From the IMG/VR virus record IMGVR_UViG_2778261676_000002: DNA of 17,257 nucleotides; one strand, written 5' to 3'. The translations under genes were made by a program, and so were the position numbers. The first letter of the stretch is position 1. Each line of letters opens with the position of its first letter. A model generated the notes under the pieces. It was not told the DNA's origin. It worked only from the letters and a program-made list of their open reading frames with translations, and ran no database searches. Shown here one piece after another: positions 412-17,257 of this stretch. This DNA is from a virus (Duplodnaviria; Heunggongvirae; Uroviricota; Caudoviricetes).

Positions 412-420
412 ACCATAACG

Positions 421-1180: not shown

Positions 1181-1202
1181 GCAAAAAAGCTCCCGAAGGA
1201 GC
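1181..1202 (-). terminator. Intrinsic terminator downstream of cspI
   Basis: Hairpin GCTCC-CGAA-GGAGC (1189-1202) followed on the minus strand by UUUUUUGC (rc of 1181-1188). Confidence 0.45.
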
Positions 1203-1984: not shown

Positions 1985-3008
<1,024 letters not shown>

Positions 3009-3012
<4 letters not shown>

Positions 3013-3320
3013 AGATATTTATGATGAGGACGCTCGTGCTTATTGGCAGGATTTTCAATCTTAAAGGAGTACTGATGCTGCAGATAAGACTCAACTTTTT
3101 CTGACAATTTTTCTGCTACTTCCAGGAAGACTTGCCGGACGCTCCTTCTGGCTGCTGCCTCATAAAACTCCAGCGCAGCTCCTTCAACACGGTCCATGGC
3201 GACATCCAGGTCAAAAATTTCACCGTCAAAGCGTTCTTTGTCCTGTAAGGCTACAGTTACCGTAACTTTATTCTCAAAATTACGGACTCCTTTCACAACC
3301 AGTTCATAGTCTTGAGTCAT
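3009..3320 (-). CDS. ydfR: YdfR (DUF1327), 103 aa, between holin and endolysin
   Basis: ORF MTQDYELVVKGVRNFENKV...; SD GAGGAG 9 nt upstream; recalled as K-12 YdfR. Confidence 0.8.
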
Positions 3321-3324
3321 TGGA

Positions 3325-3540
3325 TTACTCTCCTCTCGCAGCCTTACGCCTGTCTTCTTTAATCTTGAAATAAAGATTTGTCAGATACGTCAGCAGGCCA
3401 AAAACCAGGCTACCCAGCACACCGATTGCAGCCCACTGTGACGGAGTTACTTTATCGAGTAACTGCAATGCCCAGAAACCAGCATTACCCGCCGATGTGC
3501 CATAGGCAACACCTGTTGTTAACTTATCCATTGATTTCAT
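3325..3540 (-). CDS. essQ: Phage-21-type class II holin (pinholin) with dual-start motif, 71 aa
   Basis: [28 protein letters not shown]...[13 protein letters not shown]; two in-frame starts (M1, M4); two TM segments; close to the phage 21 S protein as I recall it. The ORF track extends it to 3615, which I reject. Confidence 0.85.
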
Positions 3541-3759
3541 ATCCTCACCCCGATGTACACGGATGGTGCAATATGTTTGAAAAGATCGGAGTCTACGGGG
3601 TAGTTTTGACAGCACACGTTGTTCTCAACGGCGCTAAAAAAACATACACATTAAAAATGTGGGTAATTATTTTGAAAGAAAGTCATATATAAAATAATAA
3701 TACGAGAAATGTTTTCATATTTAGTGTACTGTATACGGCCATTTATACAGGAAAAGCCT

Positions 3760-3930
3760 ATGTCAGAACGTAAAAACTCAAAATCACGCCGTAATTATCT
3801 CGTTAAATGTTCCTGCCCAAACTGCACCCAAGAGTCAGAACACAGTTTTTCAAGAGTACAAAAAGGTGCCCTTTTGATCTGCCCTCATTGCAACAAAGTA
3901 TTCCAGACAAATCTTAAAGCTGTAGCCTGA
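3760..3930 (+). CDS. Small zinc-ribbon-like protein, 56 aa (CxxC...CxxC); possibly the K-12 Qin small protein YnfU
   Basis: MSERKNSKSRRNYLVKCSCPNCTQESEHSFSRVQKGALLICPHCNKVFQ...; AGGA 8 nt upstream of the ATG at 3760; AT-rich context. The ORF-track start at 3709 lacks an SD. Confidence 0.55.
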   Translation: MSERKNSKSRRNYLVKCSCPNCTQESEHSFSRVQKGALLICPHCNKVFQTNLKAVA

Positions 3931-3987
3931 TTGATTTTATTAGTAACAAGTATTTTTTATATTTTAATAATATATTTAAAGCAGATA

Positions 3988-4011
3988 ATAAAAAACCCGC
4001 CTGAGCGGGTT
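3988..4011 (-). terminator. Intrinsic terminator (minus strand) between cspB and ynfU-like gene
   Basis: Stem AACCCGC (3994-4000) / GCGGGTT (4005-4011), loop CTGA; on the minus strand followed by UUUUAUUAUCUGC. Confidence 0.5.
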
Positions 4012-4293
4012 TGAGATTGTGGTGCTTTTTGTGGGAGTCATCCACTTACGCACTTTGTTTTGCCATGCCAGCAGTTAGCTTCTGCTGTAAAACTATTCAT
4101 GCAGCAAACCTGCACTTCACCACAATGGTTAGCATACTTTTCCTGATTAAGATTTTGCCAAATATGCTAGCCATTGTTTCATGTATTGGACCTCCTTACT
4201 TTTTATTAAAGAGATCCAATATTCACTACTCTGTCCGTATCTCTACTCAGGCATCAGCCTTCTTCGTTATCGTATACAGACGAGCGATGAATT

Positions 4294-4509
4294 TTAATCA
4301 GTAATGATGACATTTGCTGCTGCAGGACCTTTAGCACCACTCTCTATAGAGAAGGTAACCTTTTGACCTTCAAATAAGGTTCGATAATTATCATTCTGAA
4401 TCGCAGAAAAATGCACAAACACATCTTTACTACCATCAACAGGAGAAATAAAGCCGAAACCTTTATCAGCGTTAAACCATTTTACTAAACCAGTCATTTT
4501 ATTTGACAT
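4294..4509 (-). CDS. cspB: Cold-shock protein CspB, 71 aa
   Basis: [38 protein letters not shown]...; cold-shock-domain motifs; long upstream leader. Confidence 0.9.
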
Positions 4510-4809
4510 TCTACATTCCTTAACTTGAGCCTTTCGGCATAAATGGTTTGCATAACAGAAACGACTTCGTACTTAATTGGAGAGACTCAAAGAAGGAATA
4601 AGTGAATAACACCTGAAATGAGAACTGCTTTAGTAAACTACTTCGTATATCGTCTGTTCTTCAAACCGACGCAATCATTAACGCATAGTTGAACATATGA
4701 AGCAATGTTTATTTTAGACATCCAGCCATCTTCAACCCCATCAAAAAACTATAGCTTTCTTCAGGAACGTGTGTATAGTGCGCCAAGTTATCAGTATTAA
4801 GGAATTTTT

Positions 4810-5022
4810 TTGTCCCGTAAAATGACAGGAATTGTCAAAACCTTTGACGGCAAAAGCGGCAAGGGTCTTATCACCCCATCCGATGGTCGTATCGATGTCC
4901 AGCTTCATGTTTCAGCGCTCAATCTCCGCGATGCAGAAGAAATTACCACCGGATTACGCGTGGAATTTTGCCGGATAAATGGTCTGCGTGGCCCTTCAGC
5001 TGCCAATGTTTACCTTTCATGA
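4810..5022 (+). CDS. cspF: Cold-shock-domain protein CspF, 70 aa (TTG start; alternative ATG at 4822)
   Basis: [37 protein letters not shown]...; AAGGA 7 nt upstream of TTG at 4810-4812; divergent from cspB. Confidence 0.85.
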
Positions 5023-5314
5023 GCTATATTAAAGCTTTAATTTCAGGCCCCATCGGATCACACATGGAGAGTTTTTATGAATAACCCCGTCTGTCTTGAT
5101 GACTGGTTGATTGGCTTTAAAAGCTTATGCTGTACTTTGGCCGTAATAGCTCTGCTAATAATATAATAAGCAGACTCATTGTGTTTAGGGACATTGTACT
5201 GGAAGAAAACATTTTAAACATCAGGCAAATAACCAAGTCACCAGCTAAATAATAAGTTAACAGACATGAGTCCCGGGATGAGATTCAACATTACCATTGC
5301 CCCATTTAAAGCAC

Positions 5315-5338
5315 AAAACCCGCTCATCAGCGGGTTTT
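5315..5338 (-). terminator. tR'-like intrinsic terminator just downstream of the late promoter (also hairpin-competent on the plus strand)
   Basis: Stem AACCCGC (5317-5323) / GCGGGTT (5330-5336), loop TCATCA; U-rich on both sides (minus strand ...UUGUGCUUU; plus strand UUUUCUACUUUUU). Confidence 0.5.
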
Positions 5339-5383
5339 CTACTTTTTCTTAACGTCGGGTATACAAAGCCCATCGTTGAAAAA

Positions 5384-5412
5384 ATTTTATCCATATTTTT
5401 TGAAAAATGCAA
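5384..5412 (-). promoter_or_regulatory. PR'-like late promoter immediately downstream of the Q gene (minus strand: TTGCAT -17 nt- TAAAAT); expected site of Q engagement (qut)
   Basis: -35 TTGCAT = rc of 5407-5412, -10 TAAAAT = rc of 5384-5389, 17-nt spacer; 32 nt downstream of the quuQ stop and about 45 nt upstream of the terminator hairpin, matching lambdoid PR'-tR' organisation. Confidence 0.45.
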
Positions 5413-5443
5413 ACATCATGTCGCCATCTTCAGCAAAAATCAT

Positions 5444-6196
5444 TTATCTCGTCACCTTCCTCAATTGCGCTTCCGCGTATGCTTCTTCCTGCCAGCACTT
5501 TGTTACCAGTTTACCAATGACGTCCGCATACCCCTTATACCACTGATAATCGGTCAGGTCTGGTACCAGCTTCTGGACATGACGTCGTGCCAGCGTGGTC
5601 GGTAAACGACTAAACCGGTTTCCATTACAACGCCCACAAATCTTATATACCGGTACGCCATGAAACCGGGTTCTTTTTTCATCCAGAACAATCCCTTTAC
5701 CCTTACACCCTCTGCACGCTGTGCTGGCTTCGCCCTTACCATGGCAATGCTGACATAGTTCCTTCACCCATTCTTCCTTGATTACAGATTCCCCGCGTCT
5801 GTAGTGTTTCACCACTTCGCGCAATACATTATAAAATCCCGTACCTGAACAATGCTCACAGCGAGCCTTACTTGCCGCAGACCTGGAGTAATCAGCAAAG
5901 GCAAAACTCACGAGGTAAGGAATAATCTGTAACCGGATTTCTTCACTCAATTTGTTCAATGTCGGGTTATCCAGTGCCATCGCGTAATTTAGCAGGCCTT
6001 CAATCGCAAACTGAGGGTCCTGAACACCAACTTTTGCCAGAAATAAGGCCAACCCAAGTGGTGCTTTCGACTGCACCATCCCCTGCGCTGCCATTACATC
6101 CGTAATTGTTAAACAACCGGTGCCTGTCGCTGGAGCGTCATCGCTCAATTTTGGAGATTTTGGGGAGTAATATTTTGGTAAGGCTTCAAGGTTCAT
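5444..6196 (-). CDS. quuQ: Late-gene antiterminator Q, 250 aa
   Basis: MNLEALPKYYSPKSPKLSDD...; several CxxC pairs (zinc-binding); GGAG 9 nt upstream of the ATG at 6194-6196. The ORF track's longer 260-aa start is rejected. Confidence 0.85.
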   Translation of the reverse strand: MNLEALPKYYSPKSPKLSDDAPATGTGCLTITDVMAAQGMVQSKAPLGLALFLAKVGVQDPQFAIEGLLNYAMALDNPTLNKLSEEIRLQIIPYLVSFAFADYSRSAASKARCEHCSGTGFYNVLREVVKHYRRGESVIKEEWVKELCQHCHGKGEASTACRGCKGKGIVLDEKRTRFHGVPVYKICGRCNGNRFSRLPTTLARRHVQKLVPDLTDYQWYKGYADVIGKLVTKCWQEEAYAEAQLRKVTR

Positions 6197-6209
6197 GCTC
6201 GTTCTCCAC

Positions 6210-7259
6210 TTACGCCAGTACGCCAATTGTCAGCGCGCGATCGATAAAACGAAATATCAGCTCCAGTTGGGAGCCATACTTATCTTCAAATGCCACTGTA
6301 TCCGTATGCAGCTCGTTGTGATGCTTTCTGCACAAAGGCAACACAAAGAGATCATGTGCTTTTGTTCCCATTCCGCCCTGCCCGTGACCAATCAGATGAT
6401 GCGGATCGTCGGCTGGCATACCGCAGCAAGCACACGGCTGTGTCTTAACCCAACGTGTGTATTTCTCCTTAACCCAGCGGCGACGTTTAGGCAGCTTCAT
6501 GAAAGATTCCGGAGACTCTGGATCAACGGTGATGCTTACCACCGTCTTTTCCTGTGGTGATTTTTGTTGCTGGTGGGCGTAAGGCAACGGTGCAAGATTT
6601 TTTGTGCGTTGTTTCAATATGCTGGTGGCGGTCTGCTCTCCCGGTACGATGTCGCTTTCGCGGTACACCGAGCAGATTTTTTCCGCTGGTAATCCCAGCG
6701 AACGACGCGATACAGCCTCAGGTAGTGCATCCACCACCTGATTGCAGACCGCCCACCAGGATAATTCAGCCAAAGATAATTCCCGCTCCTGCGTACCGCT
6801 TATTGCGTGACGGATGACGTCAATCACCCATGCTGTCAGATTTTGTTGAGCAAGCAGCTCCAGTGATTCCGATGTCTGGTCACGCAGTTGGTTGTCGCAG
6901 TGCCAGCACAACACCATTGCGCCGGTACCATAACGGTGAATGACTGTTTCAGTGTGATGGTAATCGCCATTAGGCCACTGGCAGGATGTAACATGACGTA
7001 ATAGCCAGTCGGACAATGCGCCAACGCCGCCAGCAGCACGAATCACCCGTTCGTTACTAAAAAACGGCAGCAATGTTTTGTCTTCCGCCAGCGGCTGGCG
7101 AACGGCAGGAACGACTCCGGATGGCAGATTACGCATGCTTTTTGGTTCCGGTTCCACCAGCACTCGAGGATTATGAAATATCTGTATGGATTCACGGCCC
7201 GGCTTAAGGACCACCAGCCCAAGCTCAGGCACCAGAACAGGTCTAAGTAATACCCGCAC
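6210..7259 (-). CDS. ydfU: YdfU (DUF968), 349 aa, with C-terminal Cys/His HNH-like motif; GTG start
   Basis: GTG at 7257-7259 preceded by GGAGG (4-nt spacer) and immediately following the stop of the upstream 92-aa ORF; C-terminus CACCGMPADDPHHLIGHGQGG...CRKHHNELH. Confidence 0.8.
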   Translation of the reverse strand: MRVLLRPVLVPELGLVVLKPGRESIQIFHNPRVLVEPEPKSMRNLPSGVVPAVRQPLAEDKTLLPFFSNERVIRAAGGVGALSDWLLRHVTSCQWPNGDYHHTETVIHRYGTGAMVLCWHCDNQLRDQTSESLELLAQQNLTAWVIDVIRHAISGTQERELSLAELSWWAVCNQVVDALPEAVSRRSLGLPAEKICSVYRESDIVPGEQTATSILKQRTKNLAPLPYAHQQQKSPQEKTVVSITVDPESPESFMKLPKRRRWVKEKYTRWVKTQPCACCGMPADDPHHLIGHGQGGMGTKAHDLFVLPLCRKHHNELHTDTVAFEDKYGSQLELIFRFIDRALTIGVLA

Positions 7260-7260
7260 G

Positions 7261-7539
7261 TTACCTCCAGATCCGTTGCTGGAAAGTGCGGGACGCACGT
7301 GGTGGGCGTTCGGAATAAGGCAGCCTGACAGAGATTATCCAGTGCCGATAGTCGAGACTGAGAGCTTTCTTAACCTCGAACCCGCGCCTGCGGTAAGAAT
7401 GAATCAGCCATTCGGCCTGTTCTGCAGTGCATGGAGGGTGCTGGAACCATTCAGACTTGAATGCGTGAGAATACCGCCCGTGCGTGCAGGCAAGAACGGG
7501 CGAATTATCAGAATTGTAATATTTTGCGTTGCGTGCCAT
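7261..7539 (-). CDS. Hypothetical protein, 92 aa, Cys/His-containing, translationally coupled to ydfU
   Basis: MARNAKYYNSDNSPVLACTHGRYSHAFKSEWFQHPPCTAEQAEW...; GGAG 7 nt upstream of the ATG at 7537-7539; its last codons (TGG AGG TAA) form the ydfU SD. Confidence 0.5.
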   Translation of the reverse strand: MARNAKYYNSDNSPVLACTHGRYSHAFKSEWFQHPPCTAEQAEWLIHSYRRRGFEVKKALSLDYRHWIISVRLPYSERPPRASRTFQQRIWR

Positions 7540-7605
7540 TGGTTTTCTCCGGTGGCACGGTGTTACTCAGCGGGAGTTCAGCCCCGCGCAAGATTGTAGA
7601 TGAGT

Positions 7606-7857
7606 TTATTCTCCTGAAAAAGCAGAAAAGCCAGCTTTTATTCCGATCTCTTTCAATGCCTGTAATGAAGTGACAAACTCACCTTCGCGCAAGATAAATC
7701 CGTCCGTGACCCGAGCATCCACAAAATTAATTAACGCAGCCCCATTCTTTCGCAAACACATAATGCGGTAATGACTAACAAGATTTCCATTTTCAACGCA
7801 CACAGCATAGAGGCCATCTTCACAAAAAATTTTACGCAGTTCTTCGATGTTCATCAT
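7606..7857 (-). CDS. rem: Rem, 83 aa, function unknown
   Basis: MMNIEELRKIFCEDGLYAVCVENGNLVSHYRIM...; AAGGA about 7 nt upstream; length matches my memory of K-12 Rem (83 aa). Confidence 0.65.
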   Translation of the reverse strand: MMNIEELRKIFCEDGLYAVCVENGNLVSHYRIMCLRKNGAALINFVDARVTDGFILREGEFVTSLQALKEIGIKAGFSAFSGE

Positions 7858-7935
7858 CAGAATCCTTCCGGATAATTAGCTCTCCCCTTTAAGGGACCAT
7901 CCCTCTTATCCCTGCGCGCTACTTAAGTATTTTTG

Positions 7936-7965
7936 ATTCTATTCCGGCACCGTCCAGAACTTCAA
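7936..7965 (-). promoter_or_regulatory. Candidate sigma-70 promoter for rem (minus strand: TTGAAG -18 nt- TAGAAT)
   Basis: -35 = rc of 7960-7965, -10 = rc of 7936-7941; about 80 nt upstream of the rem ATG; sequence-only prediction. Confidence 0.3.
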
Positions 7966-7974
7966 ACGCGTTGA

Positions 7975-8005
7975 AAATAAAAACAAAAACCCGCCGAAGC
8001 GGGTT
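7975..8005 (-). terminator. Intrinsic terminator downstream of hokD (end of relB-relE-hokD operon)
   Basis: Stem AACCCGC (7988-7994) / GCGGGTT (7999-8005), loop CGAA; followed on the minus strand by UUUGUUUUUAUUUU. Confidence 0.55.
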
Positions 8006-8073
8006 AAGTGCGGGTGCGTTGAGGATGCCTGCCACATCAGAGGTGGCGAGGGATTTCTCCCCCGCCGGGTCTC

Positions 8074-8229
8074 TTACTCCTCAGGTTCGTAAGCTGTGAA
8101 GACAGCGACCTCCGTCTGGCCGGTTCGGATTCGTACCTCGCAGAGGTCTTTCCTCGTTACCAGTGCCGTCACTATGACGGTTAAACAGATGACGATCAGG
8201 GCGATTAACATCGCCTTTTGCTGCTTCAT
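8074..8229 (-). CDS. hokD: Hok-family small membrane toxin HokD (RelF), 51 aa
   Basis: Hand-translated: MKQQKAMLIALIVICLTVIVTALVTRKDLCEVRIRTGQTEVAVFTAYEPEE; below the ORF-track cutoff; 71 nt downstream of relE. Confidence 0.85.
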   Translation of the reverse strand: MKQQKAMLIALIVICLTVIVTALVTRKDLCEVRIRTGQTEVAVFTAYEPEE

Positions 8230-8300
8230 AGCCTGCTTCTCCTGTCAACGCAAAGCAGAAGTGTCACCTTCGGTGCGAAACAGAGATGTCATGCTTTGGT

Positions 8301-8588
8301 TCAGAGAATGCGTTTGACCGCCTCGCTATATACTTCCGAGCGTTCTCTTTTCCCAACAGAAATCACGAAAACGACAACTTTCTCGTCTATAACCTGGTAT
8401 ACAAGGCGATAGCCTGAAGACCGGAGCTTAATCTTGTAACAATCAGGCATACCACGGAGCTTGTTTGCTTCAATCCGGGGTGACTCAAGTACTTCAACCA
8501 GCTTCTTTTTCAACTGTTCACGTACCGTCGAGCCCAGCTTTCGCCATTCCTTTAGTGCCCGCTCGTCAAAATCCAGAAAATACGCCAT
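8301..8588 (-). CDS. relE: RelE mRNA-interferase toxin, 95 aa
   Basis: MAYFLDFDERALKEWRKLGSTVREQLKKKL...; start overlaps relB stop. Confidence 0.9.
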   Translation of the reverse strand: MAYFLDFDERALKEWRKLGSTVREQLKKKLVEVLESPRIEANKLRGMPDCYKIKLRSSGYRLVYQVIDEKVVVFVISVGKRERSEVYSEAVKRIL

Positions 8589-8827
8589 CAGAGTTCATCC
8601 AGCGTCACACGTACTGGCTTAGGATTACGAAGCCGTTCTTTCACTATCTCCACAAGTTCAGCATCTTCATCACTCAGGAGTGTCTGTTTGAACGGCAAGC
8701 GTTCATTGTCAGCGATATACTCGAGCATGAGACGAAGCGCTTCAGAAGGAGTTACACCCATTTTTTCAAGCGCGGCGTAAGAACGCGCTTTAAGTTCATC
8801 GTCAATACGCAGGTTAATGCTACCCAT
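8588..8827 (-). CDS. relB: RelB antitoxin, 79 aa
   Basis: MGSINLRIDDELKARSYAALEKMGVTPSEALRLML...; SD GAGGTG upstream. Confidence 0.9.
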   Translation of the reverse strand: MGSINLRIDDELKARSYAALEKMGVTPSEALRLMLEYIADNERLPFKQTLLSDEDAELVEIVKERLRNPKPVRVTLDEL

Positions 8828-8838
8828 GTCTTACACCT

Positions 8839-8864
8839 CTTGTAATTACAAATGTCATTACAAG
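8839..8864 (-). promoter_or_regulatory. relO operator / relBE promoter region
   Basis: Minus-strand CTTGTAATGACATTTGTAATTACAAG: near-palindromic TTGTAAT/ATTACAA repeats 12 nt upstream of the relB ATG, matching the RelB2E-binding operator as I recall it. Confidence 0.6.
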
Positions 8865-9157
8865 TATCGCACTACAACATGCTTAGGGCAAGTCACGAAG
8901 GAAGTCAGAAAGTAGTCGTAAGAACGGTGATCACTGTCCGCTTTGTGCCAGGAGCAGCCATTGCTAAGTCCATCCTGTATTGTGCAGGTCAGCTCGTTTT
9001 TAAAGAGTCCGGCCATCATCTTACTGGTACAGACACCATATACTTTGTGACGGTCAGGCTACATATGCACAACTCAACTTATTCATCTATTTTTTGCTTT
9101 AGCATGTCAGTGTTGCTTTCTCGTCGGCGGGTGAGCGGTGACCTGACCTGTCGATAA
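8852..9157 (+). CDS. ydfV: YdfV-like ORF, 101 aa; doubtful as a protein-coding gene
   Basis: Length and position match the K-12 annotation ydfV, but the ORF starts inside relO and the translation is Cys/Ser/Val-rich with no clear SD. Confidence 0.3.
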   Translation: MSLQVSHYNMLRASHEGSQKVVVRTVITVRFVPGAAIAKSILYCAGQLVFKESGHHLTGTDTIYFVTVRLHMHNSTYSSIFCFSMSVLLSRRRVSGDLTCR

Positions 9158-9309
9158 AGGAACGTAACACGTTTTATGCAACACCCGCATGCGGCAGAAA
9201 ATTATTGCCGAACGTTTACCCCTGTCAACAAGCTTTACTTTCTGAGGCGCGCCAGCCCGCGAGGAAAACAATCTGAACATCAAACAATTAATGACACAAG
9301 AAATACGAT

Positions 9310-9336
9310 TAAAGATTTTTTTGTGCATGCCGATAG
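9310..9336 (+). promoter_or_regulatory. Sigma-28 (FliA) class-3 flagellar promoter of flxA
   Basis: TAAAGATT (9310-9317) -11 nt- GCCGATAG (9329-9336), close to the consensus TAAAGTTT-N11-GCCGATAA; 24 nt upstream of the flxA ATG. Confidence 0.6.
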
Positions 9337-9359
9337 TGCTTTTTTAAAAGGAGAAATCT

Positions 9360-9692
9360 ATGTCTGTCACAATTCAGGGAAATACCTCAACCGTTATTTC
9401 AAACAACTCCGCCCCGGAAGGAACATCAGAAATAGCCAAAATCACAAGACAAATTCAGGTGCTGACTGAAAAGCTTGGGAAAATCTCATCGGAAGAGGGG
9501 ATGACGACACAGCAGAAAAAAGAAATGGCTGCATTGGTACAGAAGCAAATTGAAAGCCTCTGGGCTCAACTGGAGCAGTTGTTAAGGCAGCAGGCAGAGA
9601 AAAAGAATGAAGACGCGACAGTTCAGCCTGATAAAAAAGAAGAGAAAAAAGACGATACAAATACCGCTGGCACCATTGATATTTACGTCTAA
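9360..9692 (+). CDS. flxA: FlxA, FliA-regulated protein, 110 aa
   Basis: MSVTIQGNTSTVISNNSAPEGTSEIAKITRQIQVLTEKLGK...; AAGGAG 7 nt upstream. Confidence 0.9.
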   Translation: MSVTIQGNTSTVISNNSAPEGTSEIAKITRQIQVLTEKLGKISSEEGMTTQQKKEMAALVQKQIESLWAQLEQLLRQQAEKKNEDATVQPDKKEEKKDDTNTAGTIDIYV

Positions 9693-9706
9693 GTGACAGC
9701 CGTATT

Positions 9707-9730
9707 GTGGCCCTCATCGGGCCACTTTTC
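9707..9730 (+). terminator. Intrinsic terminator of flxA
   Basis: Stem GTGGCCC (9707-9713) / GGGCCAC (9719-9725), loop TCATC, then TTTTC. Confidence 0.6.
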
Positions 9731-9779
9731 GCCATCAGCCTTTTCTTTAAAGACATATTATCTTTGTATCATTTCTGAT

Positions 9780-11628
9780 AGTTAACATTACAAGATATAA
9801 GTAATGGACGCACTCCCAATTAGTCTATTTAAATCGCCACGAGTTTAACTGACAACCCATGATCAATTATGAATTGCAACTATTTCTGTAGTCACTTTTG
9901 TGGGGACAGTCCACAAAACTGCCAACTTCCGCTTCTTGCTCTTAGCGGACATTAGCATAGGCTATTTACCATAACGCCTCATTACGCGCACCGCCCAGAC
10001 TGACTCAGCGCGTTTCTGGCATATCCCCGGTAAAACAAGTAACAAACCACCCGAAAATGAACACCAGAAACGCGACTTAAGAATCTACCCTATGAATGGA
10101 TATGCACTCAACCGAATCGATCTTGGTTTCAATCTTTTTTATCGGGATCAGGCTTCTTTTTAGGTAACTTCGGGGGCTTAACTTGCTGATGACTTTGCGT
10201 TCGGCGCGTAAGCCAGGGATGGTCAGCTTTAGGTTTAACATAGTATTTTGAGCGTAAATCAATACGGGCATTATCCACTCGTTCATGGACACTCTTTTCA
10301 TCATCCAGTGGTATAGGCTCCGGGCCATCAACATACTTTTCCCAGCCCAGCGCTTTCCCGTCATACAGAACGTTAATTTCACCGTCAAAGTTCTCGCATA
10401 CAGTAACAACCGAATGCCTAAGTCGATATCCCCGGCCCTCACTGCGTACCTGAAACGCACTGCTTTTGTACTGGAAAGTGAGATTTTTAGACAGAACGCG
10501 CTTCGCCTGTAGGCTGAAGATATAACCCAGTTCCTCTTCAGAATGGTGCACATCAAGATGAGCATTATCAGTAGTACGAGGCGACGTAGCGAACCGGTTG
10601 TTATAGGCTTCAATAAAGGTCGGCAACCATGCATTTGCTGTTTCAATATCACTGATATTCTGAAGCCGCATTTCTTTGACCAGCCTGTCCTGTAGTGTCT
10701 GATTGGCGCGCTCTACCCGCCCTTTTGCCTGCGGGCTGTTGGCATGGATTGGCTCGATGCCCAGTGTCTTTATCGCACGAGTGAACTGGGTCAGCTCACC
10801 TTCCCGCTCTGGGCTATTTACCCTGAATATACTGTGTCTATCAGAGTAGAGAGCGAGCGGTACGCCATGATCATTAAGGTAACCCCGGAGGGTTTCCATG
10901 TAAGCCCGGGTTGTTTCAGCAGGCACAAAACGCAACGCCATCAACGCACTGGTGGCATCATCAATGAAAACGATCAGTGTACATCTGGGGCCTCGATTTT
11001 CAAACCAGTCATGAGGTGAGCCATCAATCTGGATCAGTTCACCGTAAGATGGTCGTCGCATGCGGCGTTGATATATACGGGCAATTTTACGACGGCGTTC
11101 ACGCCATAACCCCTCTTCTATCATCCACTTTCTGAGAGTTTCAACGGATAAAGATAAACCGTGTATCTCGCGCAATTTTTCGCACGCAAACGTAGGTCCA
11201 AAATCAGCGTAACGGCCTTTGAGGAGTGAAATTACTGTTGCTCTGAATTCAGTAGAAAAGGAATTATTAGGACGCTTTCCACGTCGGTGGGAAACCAGAC
11301 CAGAAGGCCCTTCATTTCTATACCGTTGCACCAGACGTTTAACCTGCCGAATAGAAATGCCAATGCGTGCCGCAGCTTGTTCCTGAATAATCTGAAGTCG
11401 GTGGAGTTCCTTATGACTCATCGTAACAGTCTCTTTGATCATGAAAAATCCCCCAGAGAATTGTCTGGGGACATTTTAGAATGGTTCAAAGGGGACATTA
11501 CAGCTTGGTGTTAACAATAGCCTGCTTCTCCGTGCCTTTCGGCACGTAAGAGGCTAACCTACATGTGTCTAGCATGAAATTGGCCTCAGATTAATGTTAA
11601 GCGTCTTGCAGGACGCGTAATGTTAACT
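9780..11628 (-). mobile_element. Insertion-sequence-like element carrying a DDE transposase; boundaries tentative
   Basis: Transposase CDS 10129-11442; a perfect 12-bp inverted repeat AGTTAACATTAC (9780-9791) / GTAATGTTAACT (11617-11628) brackets it, but it contains a GTTAAC palindrome, does not extend, and has no flanking direct repeats. Confidence 0.3.
10129..11442 (-). CDS. DDE transposase (rve/integrase-core fold), 437 aa; ISNCY/IS481-like by appearance
   Basis: N-terminal HTH-like region then DDE triad context ...LIQIDGSPHDW..., ...LALYSDRHSIF..., ...AKGRVERANQTL...; family assignment from memory only; alternative start at 11419-11421. Confidence 0.8.
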   Translation of the reverse strand: MIKETVTMSHKELHRLQIIQEQAAARIGISIRQVKRLVQRYRNEGPSGLVSHRRGKRPNNSFSTEFRATVISLLKGRYADFGPTFACEKLREIHGLSLSVETLRKWMIEEGLWRERRRKIARIYQRRMRRPSYGELIQIDGSPHDWFENRGPRCTLIVFIDDATSALMALRFVPAETTRAYMETLRGYLNDHGVPLALYSDRHSIFRVNSPEREGELTQFTRAIKTLGIEPIHANSPQAKGRVERANQTLQDRLVKEMRLQNISDIETANAWLPTFIEAYNNRFATSPRTTDNAHLDVHHSEEELGYIFSLQAKRVLSKNLTFQYKSSAFQVRSEGRGYRLRHSVVTVCENFDGEINVLYDGKALGWEKYVDGPEPIPLDDEKSVHERVDNARIDLRSKYYVKPKADHPWLTRRTQSHQQVKPPKLPKKKPDPDKKD

Positions 11629-11776
11629 GGGGCTTTTCTCTATCTGCCGTTGGTGTCCATGCCCGAGGCAGATAGCCTCAAGCACCCGCAGTCATTCTAC
11701 TTAACTAAGATTTCCCCGCAAACCGTTTTTGTCCAGCACAGTAAATATCCAACTAAACCAATGGAGTTCGCTGTAT

Positions 11777-11956
11777 TTACCGCCAGTATTCAATGCACAT
11801 GACCGCCATGAACACCCCTAAAAAAAGGGCATTTATATATCCAAATATTAATATCAAAACATCAACTTTTTCCATATACCTTGCTGTGAAGATGATGGGC
11901 ATACATGATGCGAACAACCAGAACGCAACAAACAAAAACTGCAATGCGTTTTTCAT
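11777..11956 (-). CDS. Small two-TM membrane protein, 59 aa, AT-rich gene of unknown function
   Basis: MKNALQFLFVAFWLFASCMPIIFTARYMEKVDVLILIFGYINALFLGVFMAVMCIEYWR; AGGAGG 4 nt upstream of the ATG at 11954-11956; the ORF-track start at 11995 is rejected. Confidence 0.5.
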   Translation of the reverse strand: MKNALQFLFVAFWLFASCMPIIFTARYMEKVDVLILIFGYINALFLGVFMAVMCIEYWR

Positions 11957-12210
11957 TATTCCTCCTACAATCAATGTGCAATTACATTTAAACACACCTC
12001 AATTTGGCCGGACATATAAATATCTAAACCAGAAAAAATCACTTACATAGCGTTACAAACTCTTTAGTCTAAAGGTTCATCGTAAAACATTCCCCATACT
12101 TATCAGTCCGTTCCGCGCCAGGTAGCTCATTGCCTTATCTGGCAACCTGTAATCAGGTTTCCGCTTTTTCAGTTGGCTGGTCGTTTAACCGACATAGTTA
12201 ATCCATTAAT

Positions 12211-12498
12211 CTAGTTGCCGGATGTTGGTGGATTTTCGCGTTTTAGTTGTTCATAAAAGTGCACAGCTTTAACCAGTTCTTCTGATGTAACTGGGACTGG
12301 TGAGGCAGTGAATAAGGCCTGAATTTGATAGTTCGGCCTGTCGTTACAATCCTCTTTTTTCGGTACATATTTCCAGTCACCAGACCACTACTTCCCCTGA
12401 AAGTCCGTAACGCCTTTTTTCACGTAGCGATATCGCCATGCCACTGGTTTTGCTTGCCCCGCCGTTTCATGCCCTTCCTGATAATTAATCTCGCTCAT
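12211..12498 (-). pseudogene. 95-codon ORF interrupted by one in-frame amber (TAG) codon at 12388-12390; function unknown
   Basis: MSEINYQEGHETAGQAKPVAWRYRYVKKGVTDFQGK-[TAG]-WSGDWKYVPKKEDCNDRPNYQIQALFTASPVPVTSEELVKAVHFYEQLKRENPPTSGN; protein-like composition on both sides of the stop; GGGG about 8 nt upstream of the ATG. Confidence 0.4.
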
Positions 12499-12677
12499 TC
12501 ATCGCCCCACTCATCACAATATGCTTCGACCGGAGTTTTTCCCGCTTCATAGTCATCACGCTAGGATTCGACATCAGCAGCACTTCCACCGCGTATCCGG
12601 CGTTAATTGTTAACTGGTTAACGTCACCTGGAGGCACCAGGCACTGCATCACAAAATTCATTGTTGAGGACGCGATA

Positions 12678-12866
12678 ATGAAAACGTTATTACCAAACGT
12701 TAATACGTCTGAAGGTTGTTTTGAAATTGGTGTCACTATCAGTAACCCAGTATTTACTGAAGATGCCATTAACAAGAGAAAACAAGAACGGGAGCTATTA
12801 AATAAAATATGCATTGTTTCAATGCTGGCTCGTTTACGTCTGATGCCAAAAGGATGTGCACAATGA
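12678..12866 (+). CDS. dicB: DicB, 62 aa, cell-division inhibitor (acts via MinC)
   Basis: MKTLLPNVNTSEGCFEIGVTISNPVFTEDAINKRKQERELLNKICIVSMLARLRLMPKGCAQ, recalled as K-12 DicB; GAGGA 7 nt upstream. Confidence 0.7.
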   Translation: MKTLLPNVNTSEGCFEIGVTISNPVFTEDAINKRKQERELLNKICIVSMLARLRLMPKGCAQ

Positions 12867-13054
12867 ATTCAGCATTTGTGCTTGTTCTGACAGTTTTTCT
12901 TGTTTCCGGAGAGCCAGTTGATATTGCAGTCAGTGTTCACAGGACAATGCAGGAGTGTATGACTGCAGCAACCGAACAGAAAATTCCCGGTAACTGTTAC
13001 CCGGTCGATAAAGTTATTCACCAGGATAATATCGAAATCCCGGCAGGTCTTTAA
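12863..13054 (+). CDS. ydfD: YdfD, 63 aa, small lysis protein with N-terminal TM segment
   Basis: MNSAFVLVLTVFLVSGEPVDIAVSVHRTMQECMTAATEQKIPGNCYPVDKVIHQDNIEIPAGL; ATG overlaps the dicB stop (ATGA). Confidence 0.7.
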   Translation: MNSAFVLVLTVFLVSGEPVDIAVSVHRTMQECMTAATEQKIPGNCYPVDKVIHQDNIEIPAGL

Positions 13055-13146
13055 AACAGTTCCGTAATAAATATCCGGTTTCATTCTTATATGCCAGCAA
13101 TGGCAGGGATTTGTTCATCCTTAAATCTGTCATGAGGTTAAAACAA

Positions 13147-15618
13147 ATGAGTAAAGTCTTTATTTGCGCCGCTATTCCTGACGAACTGGCAACAAGGGAA
13201 GAAGGCGCTGTGGCTGTAGCCACAGCCATTGAAGCTGGCGACGAACGCCGTGCTCGAGCAAAATTTCACTGGCAATTCCTGGAACATTATCCGGCTGCTC
13301 AGGACTGCGCTTATAAATTTATTGTCTGCGAGGATAAACCTGGCATACCCCGCCCTGCCCTCGATTCATGGGATGCTGAATATATGCAGGAAAACCGCTG
13401 GGATGAGGAGTCTGCTTCTTTTGTCCCGGTTGAGACTGAATCCGATCCGATGAACGTCACTTTTGACAAGCTGGCCCCTGAAGTACAGAACGCTGTCATG
13501 GTTAAGTTCGACACATGTGAAAACATCACCGTTGATATGGTTATTAGCGCACAGGAATTGTTGCAGGAAGACATGGCAACATTCGACGGACATATCGTTG
13601 AAGCGTTGATGAAAATGCCAGAAGTTAACGCCATGTATCCGGAGCTTAAGTTGCACGCCATTGGGTGGGTTAAGCATAAATGTATTCCTGGTGCTAAATG
13701 GCCCGAAATTCAGGCAGAGATGCGCATCTGGAAAAAACGTCGCGAAGGTGAACGCAAGGAAACCGGAAAATACACGTCTGTTGTTGATCTCGCCCGCGCC
13801 AGAGCCAATCAACAGTACACTGAAAATTCAACAGGAAAAATCAGCCCGGTCATTGCTGCCATTCATCGCGAATACAAGCAGACATGGAAAACACTGGATG
13901 ACGAACTGGCCTACGCTCTCTGGCCTAGTGATGTGGATGCCGGAAACATTGACGGCAGCATCCATCGCTGGGCAAAAAAAGAAGTTATCGACAACGACCG
14001 CGAAGACTGGAAGCGTATCTCGGCATCAATGCGCAAACAGCCTGATGCCCTTCGCTACGACCGCCAAACTATTTTTGGCCTTGTCCGTGAGCGTCCGATC
14101 GACATTCACAAAGATCCCGTAGCACTGAACAAATATATCTGCGAATACCTGACGACAAAGGGCGTGTTTGAGAATGAAGAAACAGACCTGGGCACTGTTG
14201 ATGTTCTCCAGTCATCAGAAACACAAACTGATGCAGTGGAAACTGAGGTATCTGATATCCCAAAAAATGAAACCGCGCCGGAAGCTGAACCATCTGTAGA
14301 GCGTGAGGGGCCGTTCTATTTCCTCTTCGCAGATAAGGACGGAGAAAAATACGGTCGCGCAAACAAACTCTCTGGTCTGGATAAGGCACTGGCTGCTGGC
14401 GCCACTGAAATCACAAAAGAAGAATATTTTGCCCGAAAAAATGGCACATACACGGGCTTACCGCAAAATGTAGATACCGCTGAAGATTCAGAACAACCAG
14501 AGCCGATAAAAGTTACCGCTGACGAAGTAAACAAAATTATGCAGGCAGCCAATATCAGCCAGCCTGACGCCGATAAGTTGCTTGCTGCATCACGTGGTGA
14601 ATTTGTTGAAGGGATTAGTGACCCGAATGATCCGAAATGGGTTAAGGGGCTCCAGACCCGCGATTCTGTGAACCAGAACCAGCATGAATCGGAACGGAAC
14701 TACCAAAAAGCGGAACAAAACAGTCCAAATGCGTTACAAAACGAGCCAGAAACGAAACAGCCTGAACCAGTAGCGCAACAGGAAGTGGAAAAAGTCTGCA
14801 CCGCCTGCGGTCAGACCGGCGGCGGCAACTGCCCTGATTGTGGCGCGGTGATGGGCGACGCAACATACCAAGAAACATTCGATGAAGAGTATCAGGTTGA
14901 AGTTCAGGAAGATGATCCGGAGGAAATGGAAGGCGCTGAACATCCACACAAGGAGAACACTGGCGGCAATCAGCATCACAATAGCGATAATGAAACTGGC
15001 GAGACGGCAGATCACCCAATTAAGGTGAACGGTCATCACGAAATCACATCCACCAGCAGGACGTGTGACCATCTAATGATCGACCTTGAAACCATGGGAA
15101 AAAATCCTGATGCCCCGATCATCTCAATAGGTGCAATATTTTTCGATCCGCAAACCGGAGATATGGGACCGGAATTTAGTAAGACTATCGATCTGGAAAC
15201 TGCTGGCGGAGTCATTGATCGGGACACCATTAAATGGTGGCTTAAGCAATCACGCGAAGCGCAATCTGCCATTATGACCGATGAAATCCCGTTAGATGAT
15301 GCACTGTTACAATTGCGAGAATTTATCGACGAAAACTCCGGTGAATTTTTTGTTCAGGTTTGGGGAAATGGAGCCAACTTCGACAACACGATTTTGCGCC
15401 GTTCATACGAACGGCAGGGGATCCCCTGCCCGTGGCGTTACTACAACGATCGCGATGTACGCACAATCGTTGAGCTGGGGAAAGCCATAGACTTCGATGC
15501 CAGAACGGCTATTCCATTCGAAGGTGAGCGCCATAATGCACTTGATGACGCCCGTTACCAGGCAAAATACGTTTCAGTTATCTGGCAAAAACTGATCCCG
15601 AGTCAGGCTGATTCTTAA
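13147..15618 (+). CDS. 823-aa RecE-like protein with C-terminal DEDDh (DnaQ/RNase T-like) 3'-5' exonuclease domain
   Basis: ATG at 13147 with GAGG 9 nt upstream (ORF-track TTG at 13111 rejected). Middle region KLLAASRGEFVEGISDPNDPKWVKG and CTACGQTGGGNCPDCGAVMGDATYQETFDEE matches RecE as recalled; C-terminus (from 15061) has MIDLET, VWGNGANFD and HNALDDARY motifs. K-12 ydfE may be the N-terminal remnant of this gene (memory only). Confidence 0.8.
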   Translation: MSKVFICAAIPDELATREEGAVAVATAIEAGDERRARAKFHWQFLEHYPAAQDCAYKFIVCEDKPGIPRPALDSWDAEYMQENRWDEESASFVPVETESDPMNVTFDKLAPEVQNAVMVKFDTCENITVDMVISAQELLQEDMATFDGHIVEALMKMPEVNAMYPELKLHAIGWVKHKCIPGAKWPEIQAEMRIWKKRREGERKETGKYTSVVDLARARANQQYTENSTGKISPVIAAIHREYKQTWKTLDDELAYALWPSDVDAGNIDGSIHRWAKKEVIDNDREDWKRISASMRKQPDALRYDRQTIFGLVRERPIDIHKDPVALNKYICEYLTTKGVFENEETDLGTVDVLQSSETQTDAVETEVSDIPKNETAPEAEPSVEREGPFYFLFADKDGEKYGRANKLSGLDKALAAGATEITKEEYFARKNGTYTGLPQNVDTAEDSEQPEPIKVTADEVNKIMQAANISQPDADKLLAASRGEFVEGISDPNDPKWVKGLQTRDSVNQNQHESERNYQKAEQNSPNALQNEPETKQPEPVAQQEVEKVCTACGQTGGGNCPDCGAVMGDATYQETFDEEYQVEVQEDDPEEMEGAEHPHKENTGGNQHHNSDNETGETADHPIKVNGHHEITSTSRTCDHLMIDLETMGKNPDAPIISIGAIFFDPQTGDMGPEFSKTIDLETAGGVIDRDTIKWWLKQSREAQSAIMTDEIPLDDALLQLREFIDENSGEFFVQVWGNGANFDNTILRRSYERQGIPCPWRYYNDRDVRTIVELGKAIDFDARTAIPFEGERHNALDDARYQAKYVSVIWQKLIPSQADS

Positions 15619-15629
15619 TGTTCAACTGT

Positions 15630-15661
15630 CGCCGGTTGTGACTGGTATTCTGCAACCGGCG
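15630..15661 (+). other. 9-bp-stem hairpin immediately after the exonuclease gene (CGCCGGTTG / CAACCGGCG, 14-nt loop)
   Basis: Perfect inverted repeat 15630-15638/15653-15661; no U-tract, so not a canonical intrinsic terminator. Confidence 0.3.
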
Positions 15662-15690
15662 CTCGTCTGATGTAAGAGATAAAGAAATCG

Positions 15691-15942
15691 ATGAGCGAAG
15701 TAATCATGATTGTCTCTCCCGGCAAATGGGTATCCGAAGAGCAGTTAATTGCGCTGAAAGGAATAAAAAAAGGTACGTTAAAAAAGGCCCGGGAAAAATC
15801 GTTTATGGAAGGAAGGGAATATAAGCATGTCGCTCATGACGGTATGCCATGGGATAACAGTCCATGCTTTTACAACCTGGAAGAAATTGATCGCTGGATT
15901 GAGCGCCAGGCATCAGCGAGACCAAGACGTCATCTTACTTGA
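15691..15942 (+). CDS. Excisionase-like (Xis) small DNA-binding protein, 83 aa
   Basis: MSEVIMIVSPGKWVSEEQLIALKGIKKGTLKKAREKSFMEGREYKHV...; basic, sits directly upstream of the integrase; family assignment from memory and position only. Confidence 0.55.
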   Translation: MSEVIMIVSPGKWVSEEQLIALKGIKKGTLKKAREKSFMEGREYKHVAHDGMPWDNSPCFYNLEEIDRWIERQASARPRRHLT

Positions 15943-15976
15943 CTAAAAGCCACACTAACTAATGAGAGAAGTTGAA

Positions 15977-17257
15977 ATGAAATATCCGACAGGCGTGGAA
16001 AACCATGGAGGGAAATTACGTATCTGGTTTGTTTATAAAGACGTAAGAGTCAGGGAAAATCTGGGGGTTCCTGACACAGCAAAAAACAGGCGCGTTGCAG
16101 GTGAACTACGCTCCTCTGTTTGTTACGCAATAAAAACTGGTGTTTTCGACTATGCAAAACAGTTTCCCTCCTCACGCAATCTGGAAAAATTTGGTGAGGC
16201 CCGACAAGATTTAACCATAAAAGAACTGGCTGAAAAATTTCTGGCACTGAAAGAAACTGAAGTCGCCAAAACATCACTCAACACATACCGTGCCGTCATC
16301 AAAAATATCCTGAGCATAATCGGTGAAAAAAATCTTGCCTCATCGATTAATAAAGAAAAATTACTGGAGGTTCGTAAAGAGTTACTGACTGGATACCAGA
16401 TCCCCAAAAGTAACTATATTGTTACACAACCAGGGAGATCGGCTGTAACTGTAAATAATTACATGACAAATCTTAACGCCGTGTTCCAGTTTGGTGTTGA
16501 TAACGGTTACCTGGCAGATAATCCGTTTAAGGGGATCTCGCCATTAAAGGAATCAAGAACCATTCCGGATCCTCTTTCGCGGGAAGAATTTATCCGTCTT
16601 ATCGATGCGTGCAGAAATCAGCAAGCAAAAAATTTATGGTGTGTTTCTGTTTATACTGGAGTTCGCCCTGGTGAGCTGTGTGCACTTGGATGGGAGGACA
16701 TAGATCTGAAAAATGGAACAATGATGATCAGGAGAAATTTAGCAAAAGACCGTTTCACGGTACCAAAAACACAGGCGGGAACCAATCGGGTCATTCATCT
16801 TATTAAGCCAGCAATCGACGCTCTCCGGAGTCAGATGACATTAACGAGACTGAGCAAAGAGCATATCATTGATGTTCACCTCAGAGAGTATGGCAGAACA
16901 GAAAAACAAAAATGCACCTTTGTTTTTCAACCTGAAGTGTCAGCGAGAGTAAAAAATTATGGTGACCATTTTACCGTTGACTCAATAAGGCAGATGTGGG
17001 ACGCAGCGATAAAACGTGCCGGACTCCGCCATCGAAAATCATATCAGTCGAGACATACTTATGCCTGCTGGTCGCTGACAGCTGGTGCTAACCCGGCATT
17101 TATAGCAAACCAGATGGGCCATGCAGATGCGCAAATGGTATTTCAGGTATACGGAAAATGGATGTCTGAAAACAATAATGCACAGGTAGCTTTGTTAAAT
17201 ACACAGTTAAGCGAGTTTGCCCCAACCATGCCCCATAACGAAGCAATGAAAAATTAA
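15977..17257 (+). CDS. intQ: Tyrosine-type phage integrase, apparently full length (426 aa from ATG 15977)
   Basis: MKYPTGVENHGGKLRIWFVYK...; C-terminal catalytic region with R (YTGVRPGEL), HTYACW and downstream Tyr; GAGAGAAG 5 nt upstream of ATG 15977; stop TAA at the last three bases of the window. Confidence 0.85.
   Translation: MKYPTGVENHGGKLRIWFVYKDVRVRENLGVPDTAKNRRVAGELRSSVCYAIKTGVFDYAKQFPSSRNLEKFGEARQDLTIKELAEKFLALKETEVAKTSLNTYRAVIKNILSIIGEKNLASSINKEKLLEVRKELLTGYQIPKSNYIVTQPGRSAVTVNNYMTNLNAVFQFGVDNGYLADNPFKGISPLKESRTIPDPLSREEFIRLIDACRNQQAKNLWCVSVYTGVRPGELCALGWEDIDLKNGTMMIRRNLAKDRFTVPKTQAGTNRVIHLIKPAIDALRSQMTLTRLSKEHIIDVHLREYGRTEKQKCTFVFQPEVSARVKNYGDHFTVDSIRQMWDAAIKRAGLRHRKSYQSRHTYACWSLTAGANPAFIANQMGHADAQMVFQVYGKWMSENNNAQVALLNTQLSEFAPTMPHNEAMKN

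Follow-up and report, generated by a model that had tools for sequence, protein, structure and literature searches.

The 17,257-nucleotide stretch of DNA filed as virus record IMGVR_UViG_2778261676_000002 (17.3 kb; hereafter the window) represents the right two-thirds of Qin, a cryptic prophage of Escherichia coli, with ydfO at one end and the integrase gene at the other, and the part of interest here is the interval between flxA and dicB, which holds a transposase gene and several small open reading frames (ORFs). Alignment to Qin of K-12 MG1655 (NC_000913.3) gave 99.96% identity over positions 1–10313, covering ydfO through flxA and ydfW, and 100% identity over positions 12593–13913, which span dicB, ydfD, and the start of the exonuclease gene, while other E. 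coli Qin copies matched the window at 99.5 to 100%. The gene order through flxA is thus that of K-12 Qin, as an earlier sequence-only reading of this DNA had stated. The three features which that reading placed between flxA and dicB are all borne out by the ORF list, Pfam, and NCBIfam. The first is a 437-residue transposase ORF (tnp, 10129–11442, minus strand) with Pfam HTH_32/HTH_29/HTH_28 and rve_3 domains and an NCBIfam ISNCY_2 (transpos_ISNCY_2) score of 456 bits against a cut-off of 250. The second is a 59-residue hydrophobic orphan ORF (11777–11956, minus strand), which has a strong AGGAGG Shine–Dalgarno sequence in front of it, belongs to no Pfam or PHROG family, and has homologs confined to E. 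coli and Shigella. The third is an amber-interrupted remnant of a phage protein of unknown function (phrog_660, 12211–12498, minus strand) with TAG at codon 37, and it is followed by the C-terminal stump of a DUF7167/phrog_519 ORF (12495–12593, minus strand), which has an amber codon of its own and is truncated by the deletion described below. A further feature had been overlooked, namely a full-length hok mRNA leader, the Sok-target region, at 11516–11687 on the minus strand. It matches Rfam RF01794 at 104.1 bits (gathering threshold, 59; E = 4e-23) over model positions 1 to 157 of 157 and is complete up to the position of the start codon. A weak second RF01794 match on the plus strand (11629–11810, 18.9 bits, E = 0.35) probably reflects the palindromic stems of the leader and was treated as chance.

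The genes dicA, dicC, ydfX, ydfA–C, and dicF are absent from the window. Searches by tblastn with DicA, DicC, YdfA, YdfC, and YdfX across the entire 17 kb returned chance matches only, and blastn-short with K-12 dicF over the same stretch returned only chance 8- to 10-mers. The Rfam DicF model gave nothing in the window at its gathering threshold or at E ≤ 1, and the ORFs of at least 40 residues in 11287–12814 contain no helix–turn–helix (HTH) and no other significant Pfam domain. The reported absence of a DicA-like or Cro-like ORF therefore holds, as neither tblastn nor Pfam nor alignment found any trace of dicC or dicA, and so does the failure to recognize dicF upstream of dicB. Specifically, neither a DicA-like repressor gene nor a dicF small RNA was found in 11443–12677 by Rfam, blastn-short, tblastn, or Pfam.

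Both tnp and flxA lie inside a 3,274-bp transposon with cargo (8243–11516, minus strand) of the IS1202 family, ISEsa1-like, which is delimited by its inverted repeats, its target duplication, and two empty sites. In addition to flxA (9360–9692, plus strand), the cargo comprises relE (8301–8588, minus strand), relB (8588–8827, minus strand), and ydfV (8852–9157, plus strand). The terminal inverted repeats, TGTCAACGCAAAGCAGAAGTGTCACC... and TGTTAACACCAAGCTGTAATGTCCCC..., agree at 21 of 28 positions and have TGT...ACA ends, so that the element opens with TGTCAACGCAAAGC... at 8243 and closes with ...GGTGTTAACA at 11516; two subterminal GGGGACATT repeats (direct-repeat family D3) lie one at each end. 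Abutting the inverted repeats exactly are two copies of a 15-bp target duplication, ATAGCCTGCTTCTCC, at 8228–8242 and 11517–11531, which direct-repeat analysis recovered as family D4 (100% identical, spacing 3289). On the hok strand the duplication reads GGAGAAGCAGGCTAT and extends from the Shine–Dalgarno sequence through the AT of an ATG start codon. These same 15 bases, GGAGAAGCAGGCTAT, close the hok leader at one end of the transposon and directly precede the G of the hokD start codon at the other, where the hokD (relF) coding sequence occupies 8074–8229 on the minus strand (annotated as HokD, WP_000813254.1, in the 99.9%-identical strain AST46). Leader and hokD are contiguous at the two empty sites. 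The related prophage L006 has rem, hokD, and the leader as one uninterrupted sequence, on which the two window segments overlap by 16 bp, and Qin of strain MRE162 presents the same chromosomal locus without the transposon; the target sequence is single-copy in both.

The transposon has thus split a hok locus in two. The coding sequence hokD now lies directly behind relE, and it keeps its Shine–Dalgarno sequence and ATG because both fall within the duplicated target, whereas the orphaned hok promoter and leader point into tnp. Insertion at hok in this manner explains the relB-relE-hokD operon. Cotranscription of relBEF was reported by Gotfredsen and Gerdes (1998), as cited in PMC5120126, and Ramisetty and Santhosh (2016), as cited in PMC6379469, noted relBE integration at hokD. 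The orphaned leader is also an insertion site for other insertion sequences (IS), since E. coli C and its WG5 derivatives carry ISSen4, of the IS3 family, inside it (window 11643–11650; L002 5652–6868). Candidates for an inner left end, which would give an IS of about 1.6 kb like ISEsa1, were rejected: the best, near 9780, is gapped and weaker than the end at 8243, and a palindrome at 9888–9926 matches the right inverted repeat poorly base by base.

Plasmids of the IncI and IncF groups carry copies of the transposon at least 99.6% identical to that of Qin, and every such copy is bounded by a 15-bp duplication of its own. The copy on a Salmonella IncI plasmid is flanked by ATCATAGCCCCTCCA and that on an Enterobacter asburiae IncF plasmid by ATGGCCTTCTTCTCC, and both of these duplications again begin at the Shine–Dalgarno sequence of a hok-family gene and end with the AT of its start codon. 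The sequences flanking the Qin, IncI, and IncF insertions share only 54 to 58% identity with one another, which, set against the near identity of the transposon itself, indicates three independent insertions. When the IncI empty site was reconstructed, it matched more than 800 IncI plasmids, including ColIb-P9, at 300 of 300 positions. Relatives with transposases 86 to 98% identical occur in Enterobacter, Kluyvera, Citrobacter, Pantoea, Klebsiella, Leclercia, and other genera. A hok leader adjoins the right end in 11 of 15 distinct flanks of the close relatives, and in all five relatives where Rfam detected the leader, it stops exactly at the element terminus. At most hok sites the insertion lies 31 nt from a conserved AAGAGGCTA, adjoining a TTGCC...GGCA motif, and the target is probably read from the leader DNA through these two sequences. 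The relBE pair is equally constant, being located 61 bp inside the left end and directed outward in every enterobacterial relative with both ends captured. RelB and RelE are 97 to 100% identical between elements and the transposases differ by about 8%. The middle cargo varies between tnp and relBE, which are kept at the ends (an Enterobacter adelaidei plasmid, L008, and a Kluyvera sp., L025); one sister type carries cytochrome b561 and a cation-diffusion-facilitator efflux protein, together with an IS110 insertion, and another carries two YdcZ exporter subunits and a LysR regulator. Among distant relatives, those of Hahella are multicopy simple IS of 1,449 bp without cargo, and one from Chromatiales has a perfect 15-bp duplication.

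Taken together, these comparisons present the element as one that cuts and inserts with a 15-bp staggered duplication and that appears strongly to prefer a single position in hok. We are somewhat inclined to a broader proposal, in which IS1202-type transposons carrying the paradigm E. coli relBE home to the Shine–Dalgarno sequence and start codon of hok genes on prophages and on IncI and IncF plasmids, so that one toxin–antitoxin system captures the toxin of another. Several observations count against it. Four of the 15 close relatives are located outside hok leaders and one copy is inverted; the preference for hok could be inflated by selection or sampling; and the recognition motif comes from a small alignment. 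Moreover, the Qin transposase lacks nine residues, SINRHITQE (27 bp, at window 11380), of its N-terminal HTH relative to the 446-residue plasmid copies. Every Qin copy that was compared has this deletion (ATCC 8739, E. coli C, and AST46 as well as the window), and the Qin copy of tnp may be immobile, probably an inactivated fossil. If the proposal is correct, the ISEsa1 branch of the IS1202 family would gain an end structure, a duplication length, and a target specificity, the last two of them for the first time. Insertion would cut hok off from its promoter and from Sok/mok control and set it behind the autoregulated relBE promoter. This would account for the origin of the much-studied relB-relE-hokD operon, place the "missing" hokD leader, and bear on how relBE and hokD phenotypes are interpreted. 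More widely, type I toxin loci would serve as landing sites through which a mobile element spreads a type II toxin–antitoxin pair among plasmids and prophages, together with changing cargo that can include a metal-efflux gene. The stability loci struck in this way would include hok, pnd, and flm on IncI and IncF plasmids. Neither the transposon itself nor its ends, its duplication, or its preference for hok turned up in a search of the literature outside subscription sources.

The spacer between flxA and tnp contains a candidate cer/dif-like Xer site, GGTGCGCGTAA-TGAGGCG-TTATGGTAAAT, at 9962–9992 on the minus strand, judged by its resemblance to the XerC/XerD cer/dif consensus. About 110 bp around this site match small plasmids of 2 to 4.6 kb at 74 to 82%, and the stretch just upstream, 9901–9962, has GGGGACAGT and GCGGACATT motifs that resemble the right end of the same IS family. 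An Xer-like site inside the transposon is suggestive, given that dif-like sites are targeted by a different branch of that IS family. The spacer of ATCC 8739 has in addition a 25-bp insertion, ATTTCTGATAGTTAACATTACAAGA (L005 about 2573–2597; window 9770), which seems to repeat local sequence, window 9762–9786 being identical to it, and which is missing from the window, K-12, and the plasmid copies.

The sequence-only reading had held that the immunity region was replaced by a transposase insertion and unknown small genes. Colinear alignments to five Qin variants define the breakpoints and do not agree with replacement, since Qin of ATCC 8739, E. coli C, KL53, AST46, and further strains contains the transposase gene, the hok-leader remnant, and the small ORFs in colinear sequence at 99.5 to 100% identity. 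The first two of these strains have dicC-dicA-ydfABC-dicF alongside, which makes the transposase and small ORFs resident Qin DNA. The amber codon of the phrog_660 ORF is likewise shared by all four of the strains named. The ATCC 8739 locus (L005) is the fullest version of Qin found, and deletion coordinates are given here as L005 positions. From flxA onward its order is tnp, the hok-leader remnant, the 59-residue ORF, the phrog_660 amber ORF, and the DUF7167/phrog_519 ORF with its amber codon, then an S-adenosylmethionine-dependent methyltransferase, DUF977, a 321-residue O-like replication initiator (phrog_391), and full-length ydaT (CII-like, phrog_163), and finally dicC, dicA, ydfA, ydfB, ydfC, dicF, and dicB. 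Here dicF, which is unannotated in that record, was placed by transfer of K-12 coordinates. The layout is a typical lambdoid one, with cro, cII, O, nin-like genes, and hok following on the minus strand from dicC-dicA, and with dicA and the early-left operon running opposite to the cro-cII-O-nin strand. The 59-residue ORF and the phrog_660 amber ORF are leftovers of the decayed early-right (nin-like) operon of Qin, and the minus-strand remnants would be essentially silent too, the operon promoter next to dicC having been deleted.

Judged by these alignments, the other strains are deletion derivatives of an ATCC 8739-type layout. K-12 has its own 4.8-kb deletion (L005 3142–7940), which extends from the middle of tnp to the inside of ydaT and has its left breakpoint at window 10313, or NC_000913.3 position 1647359. 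Its ydfW is the last 49 codons of tnp and its ydfX is an N-terminal stump of ydaT, the two being fused by the deletion; in other strains, the PGAP annotation names the open 437-residue ORF a "partial" transposase and lists a separate ydfW. The reference picture is corrected accordingly, in that K-12 Qin is itself a deletion derivative. E. coli C has lost L005 5542–7795 and gained ISSen4 while keeping its immunity region. Further deletions remove L005 7108–10110 in KL53, about 6533–10110 in MB19, 6595–10112 in CFSAN061772, about 6920–10100 in MRE162, 5434–9062 in SCU-118, 5618–9616 in SW07091, and sequence through 9960 in LR-58-1, where an IS66 remnant lies at the junction. The insert at the LR-58-1 junction, being an IS66 end, has no relevance to the window. 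In the window, the deletion takes 4,684 bp (L005 5424–10107). It had been allowed that the organization of this DNA might be ancestral and K-12 the rearranged form, and this is correct for the transposase and small genes, whereas the missing immunity region is a derived loss, as its left breakpoint truncates an ORF.

The junction is located at 12593–12595, where alignment to ATCC 8739 shows a GTA microhomology, and the break falls between 12595 and 12596. The sequence reads ...CACTTCCACCGCGTA/TCCGGCGTTAATTG..., with the core CCGCGTA/TCCGGCG, and the right parental site is ...CTGTA/TCCGGCG, about 90 bp past dicF, so that the 3' end of K-12 dicF lies about 90 bp within the deleted segment. ATCC 8739 has GTA at each of the two parental sites and the window has a single copy, with no foreign DNA at the junction. 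Lost with the segment are the N-terminal part of the DUF7167 ORF, the methyltransferase, DUF977, the O-like replication gene, ydaT, and dicC, and on the dicB side dicA, the promoter dicBp, ydfA, ydfB, ydfC, and dicF. On sequence grounds we read this as a microhomology-associated, or illegitimate, deletion of the kind expected in ordinary prophage decay.

The earlier suspicion that the immunity and early-regulatory region has been lost is therefore right as to the missing module, which went by deletion; the involvement of an IS and the replacement that were suggested along with it do not fit. Placement of the transposase gene on the flxA side of the gap would suit a deletion running outward from the transposon's own end and taking the immunity region with it, and IS elements have remodeled this locus elsewhere, as with ISSen4 in E. 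coli C, the IS66 remnant in LR-58-1, and IS2 in strain GmM062. However, the left breakpoint is 1,079 bp past the intact transposon terminus at 11516 and its target duplication, inside the DUF7167/phrog_519 ORF and at no IS end, and the intervening 1,079 bp are Qin sequence 99.9% identical to E. coli C. The GTA is shared by two non-IS sequences and the right breakpoint does not resemble the inverted repeats. These positions refute an IS-adjacent deletion for this transposon, and we regard that explanation as very improbable. The immunity modules of E. coli prophages are mosaic, with K-12-type dicC-dicA in 848 of the 5,426 complete E. coli genomes that served as the comparison set and dicB-proximal sequence in 4,476, and other HTH/Cro pairs adjoin ydfA in many genomes. 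A swap with the module of another lambdoid prophage, bringing in the transposase and small genes, would be in keeping with that pattern. Positions 9757–12595 are nevertheless colinear at every base with the dicA-bearing Qin prophages of ATCC 8739 and E. coli C, the junction contains no novel DNA, and it truncates an ORF, so we give mosaic replacement next to no credence and retain a simple deletion of resident DNA.

It can also be asked whether the junction is a natural allele at all or was produced by misassembly, by cloning, or by deletion in the laboratory. The exact junction was found in none of the 5,426 complete genomes and in no Joint Genome Institute (JGI) metagenome contig, and the junction-spanning ORF was not found in the gene-position index, from which the allele must be very rare or, less likely, an assembly error. 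These negatives speak against a natural deletion. Nonetheless, only 3 bp are shared at the site and no flanking repeat is long enough to mislead an assembler, and related junctions occur in nature. Both breakpoints recur in three natural isolates, AST46, TOE17, and DLI.5a, where 50 bp of filler, copied from the O-like gene (L005 7003–7052), lie between them; an origin of the filler in the window itself was considered and rejected. The AST46-type form is a plausible precursor, and a CGTA repeat could reduce it to the window type. In GmM062 the left breakpoint is that of the window, joined through an 8-bp repeat, GTATCCGG, to the inside of the exonuclease gene. As GTATCCGG occurs twice in the window, at the junction (12593) and at 13635, GmM062 is most simply explained by a second deletion, between the two 8-bp repeats, in an ancestor of the window type. 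Relatives of this kind favor a natural origin of the window allele, and we think an artefact or a laboratory event quite unlikely.

The right breakpoint (L005 10108–10112) is common to six junctions with different left partners, namely the window, the AST46 type, KL53, MB19, CFSAN061772, and MRE162, and the left breakpoint (L005 5423) is common to three. A microhomology of 2 to 4 bp containing TA (GTA, TA, TATC, or ATAC) is present at 10 of 11 Qin junctions examined. Such reuse and TA bias go beyond plain random microhomology deletion, which must be counted as a difficulty for the deletion as read above. No DNA hairpins were found at either breakpoint (folding z-scores, −1.1 and +1.1), and neither the transposon inverted repeats nor Gin/Hin-type crossover sites gave a convincing match. 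As a weaker possibility, the reused breakpoint 82 bp upstream of dicB and the TA junctions may reflect a site-specific DNA-breaking activity in place of random slippage.

Beyond the junction, dicB (12678–12866, plus strand; Pfam DicB, 1.9e-40) and ydfD (12863–13054, plus strand; Pfam DUF1482, 3.9e-26) are intact and identical to K-12, preceded by a retained 82-bp upstream segment (12596–12677, plus strand) also identical to K-12. How two growth-inhibitory genes are kept silent without their repressor had been raised as a concern, legitimately, and the likely answer is that dicBp was deleted as well. In K-12, where the operon comprises ydfABC-dicF-dicB-ydfDE, the dicBF transcript starts at dicBp, upstream of ydfA, and no other promoter was found (PMC10448788). 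According to the same study, DicA represses dicBp, and deletion of dicA raised dicBp activity 22-fold; that deletion was made in a dicBF-deleted background since dicBF induction inhibits growth, and strong induction in dicBF+ cells is thought to be toxic. We infer that dicB and ydfD are promoterless and essentially silent in the window, and the simplest explanation for their being tolerated would be that the deletion took dicBp along with DicA. A consensus scan predicted no sigma-70-like promoter on the plus strand of 11400–12677. On the other side, this silence is itself inferred, the scan is crude, and an older study, as PMC10448788 cites it, proposed a second promoter upstream of dicB.

The same proposal would agree with a different outcome, in which dicB and ydfD have a low expression that is tolerated, driven by a minor promoter within the 82 bp or by read-through, and are kept for a benefit such as protection by DicB against phages that use ManXYZ. 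Both genes are intact and identical to K-12, at least six independent junctions end at one and the same point just short of dicB, which is thereby preserved, and a role of DicB in phage exclusion is summarized in PMC10448788. Conversely, the scan predicted no plus-strand promoter-like site upstream of dicB, and GmM062 has deleted dicB and ydfD as well. We consider low-level expression possible but rather unlikely and prefer silence through loss of dicBp. The antirepressor gene rem (7606–7857) is still intact although the target of its product, DicA, and dicBp are deleted; Rem lifts DicA repression of dicBp (PMC10448788).

We consider it very likely that two unrelated events, insertion of a hok-targeting transposon and a 4,684-bp microhomology deletion, shaped the resident Qin DNA of the window. 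In the first and older, a 3.3-kb IS1202-family transposon would have entered the hok/sok locus of the prophage, bringing tnp, then variable cargo (flxA and ydfV), and then relB-relE directed outward. Its transposase would read conserved leader DNA and insert at a fixed distance, duplicating 15 bp over the hok Shine–Dalgarno sequence and the first two bases of the ATG and thereby splitting the locus. The resulting state is common to K-12 and about 785 complete genomes. In the second event, recent and rare, a deletion with GTA microhomology would have removed the immunity switch (dicC as cro, dicA as cI, and ydaT as cII) together with ydfABC, dicF, the promoter of dicBF, and the O-like replication gene. 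A truncated nin-region ORF would thereby have come to adjoin the 82 bp that precede dicB, with dicB and ydfD left promoterless and presumably silent and Rem left without a target. A deletion that removes a repressor would then be viable when the promoter of the toxic operon goes too. Loss of immunity alone would be ordinary decay of a cryptic prophage by nested deletions, and the wider reach lies in the hok-targeting relBE transposon.

Comparing the window with K-12 Qin, it becomes clear that the flanks are more than 99.9% identical and that dicB, ydfD, rem, relBE, hokD, and the order of the late genes are held in common. The window has no dicC, dicA, dicBp, ydfABC, dicF, or ydaT stump, whereas it keeps 2.3 kb deleted in K-12, comprising most of tnp, the hok leader, the 59-residue ORF, and the nin-like remnants. 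At 13111–17257 the exonuclease gene (an 835-residue ORF with an Rv2179c-like 3'–5' exoribonuclease domain), xis, and int are uninterrupted in the window, in contrast to the IS2-disrupted pseudogenes ydfE and intQ of K-12, and this Qin copy is less decayed than K-12 Qin on that side. Two cspA-type thermoregulator 5' untranslated regions (Rfam RF01766) on the minus strand, at 1383–1768 and 4278–4670 (113 and 159 bits), sit upstream of cspI and cspB and are normal Qin content.

As for the K-12 hok loci, those on the chromosome reportedly have adjacent insertion sequences, an observation ascribed to Pedersen and Gerdes in 1999, and disruption of a hok/sok locus by a mobile element is a likeness to the case described here. 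It was known before that hokD has no regulatory leader of its own and is cotranscribed with relBE. New here are the location of the missing leader, 3.3 kb upstream, the identity of the vehicle, and the finding that insertion is recurrent and position-specific at hok loci of both plasmids and prophages.

With the IS1202 family, a group within ISNCY, and its ISEsa1 branch, the Qin element shares an N-terminal HTH and a DDE transposase of 437/446 residues (family range, 394–507), the PGAP name "IS1202-like element ISEsa1 family," and imperfect inverted repeats of about 26 to 28 bp with 5'-TGT...ACA-3' ends and a second subterminal repeat at each end. The element differs in its size of 3.3 kb (4.3 to 6.1 kb in relatives), with passengers that always include relBE, whereas a simple IS of this family is about 1.4 to 1.75 kb and carries tnp only. 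With its four passenger genes, it is best called a transporter IS or a small transposon of the IS1202 family. Subgroups of that family make duplications of 3 to 5 bp, of 16 to 28 bp, or, for ISEsa1, none (PMC10132070). ISEsa1 itself is 1,609 bp long, with a 439-residue transposase, no detectable duplication, and no identified target (Harmer and Hall 2023, PMC10132070). Compared by this published description, the clear 15-bp duplication seen at the Qin, IncI, IncF, and other sites (13 to 16 bp in relatives) comes close to the long duplications of the IS1202 subgroup and conflicts with the lack of one in ISEsa1. In the same way, the preference for the hok translation-initiation site differs from the lack of a target for the long-duplication and no-duplication groups. 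The ISAjo2 group, which targets dif/pdif, and Tn7, which targets attTn7, both with TnsB-like transposases, resemble the Qin element in belonging to a related transposase family and in inserting at a fixed distance and in a mostly fixed orientation near a conserved sequence. However, the target here, as deduced by sequence comparison, is a type I toxin locus and neither glmS nor a Xer site, nothing points to an accessory targeting protein, and the duplication is 15 bp as opposed to 5 bp.

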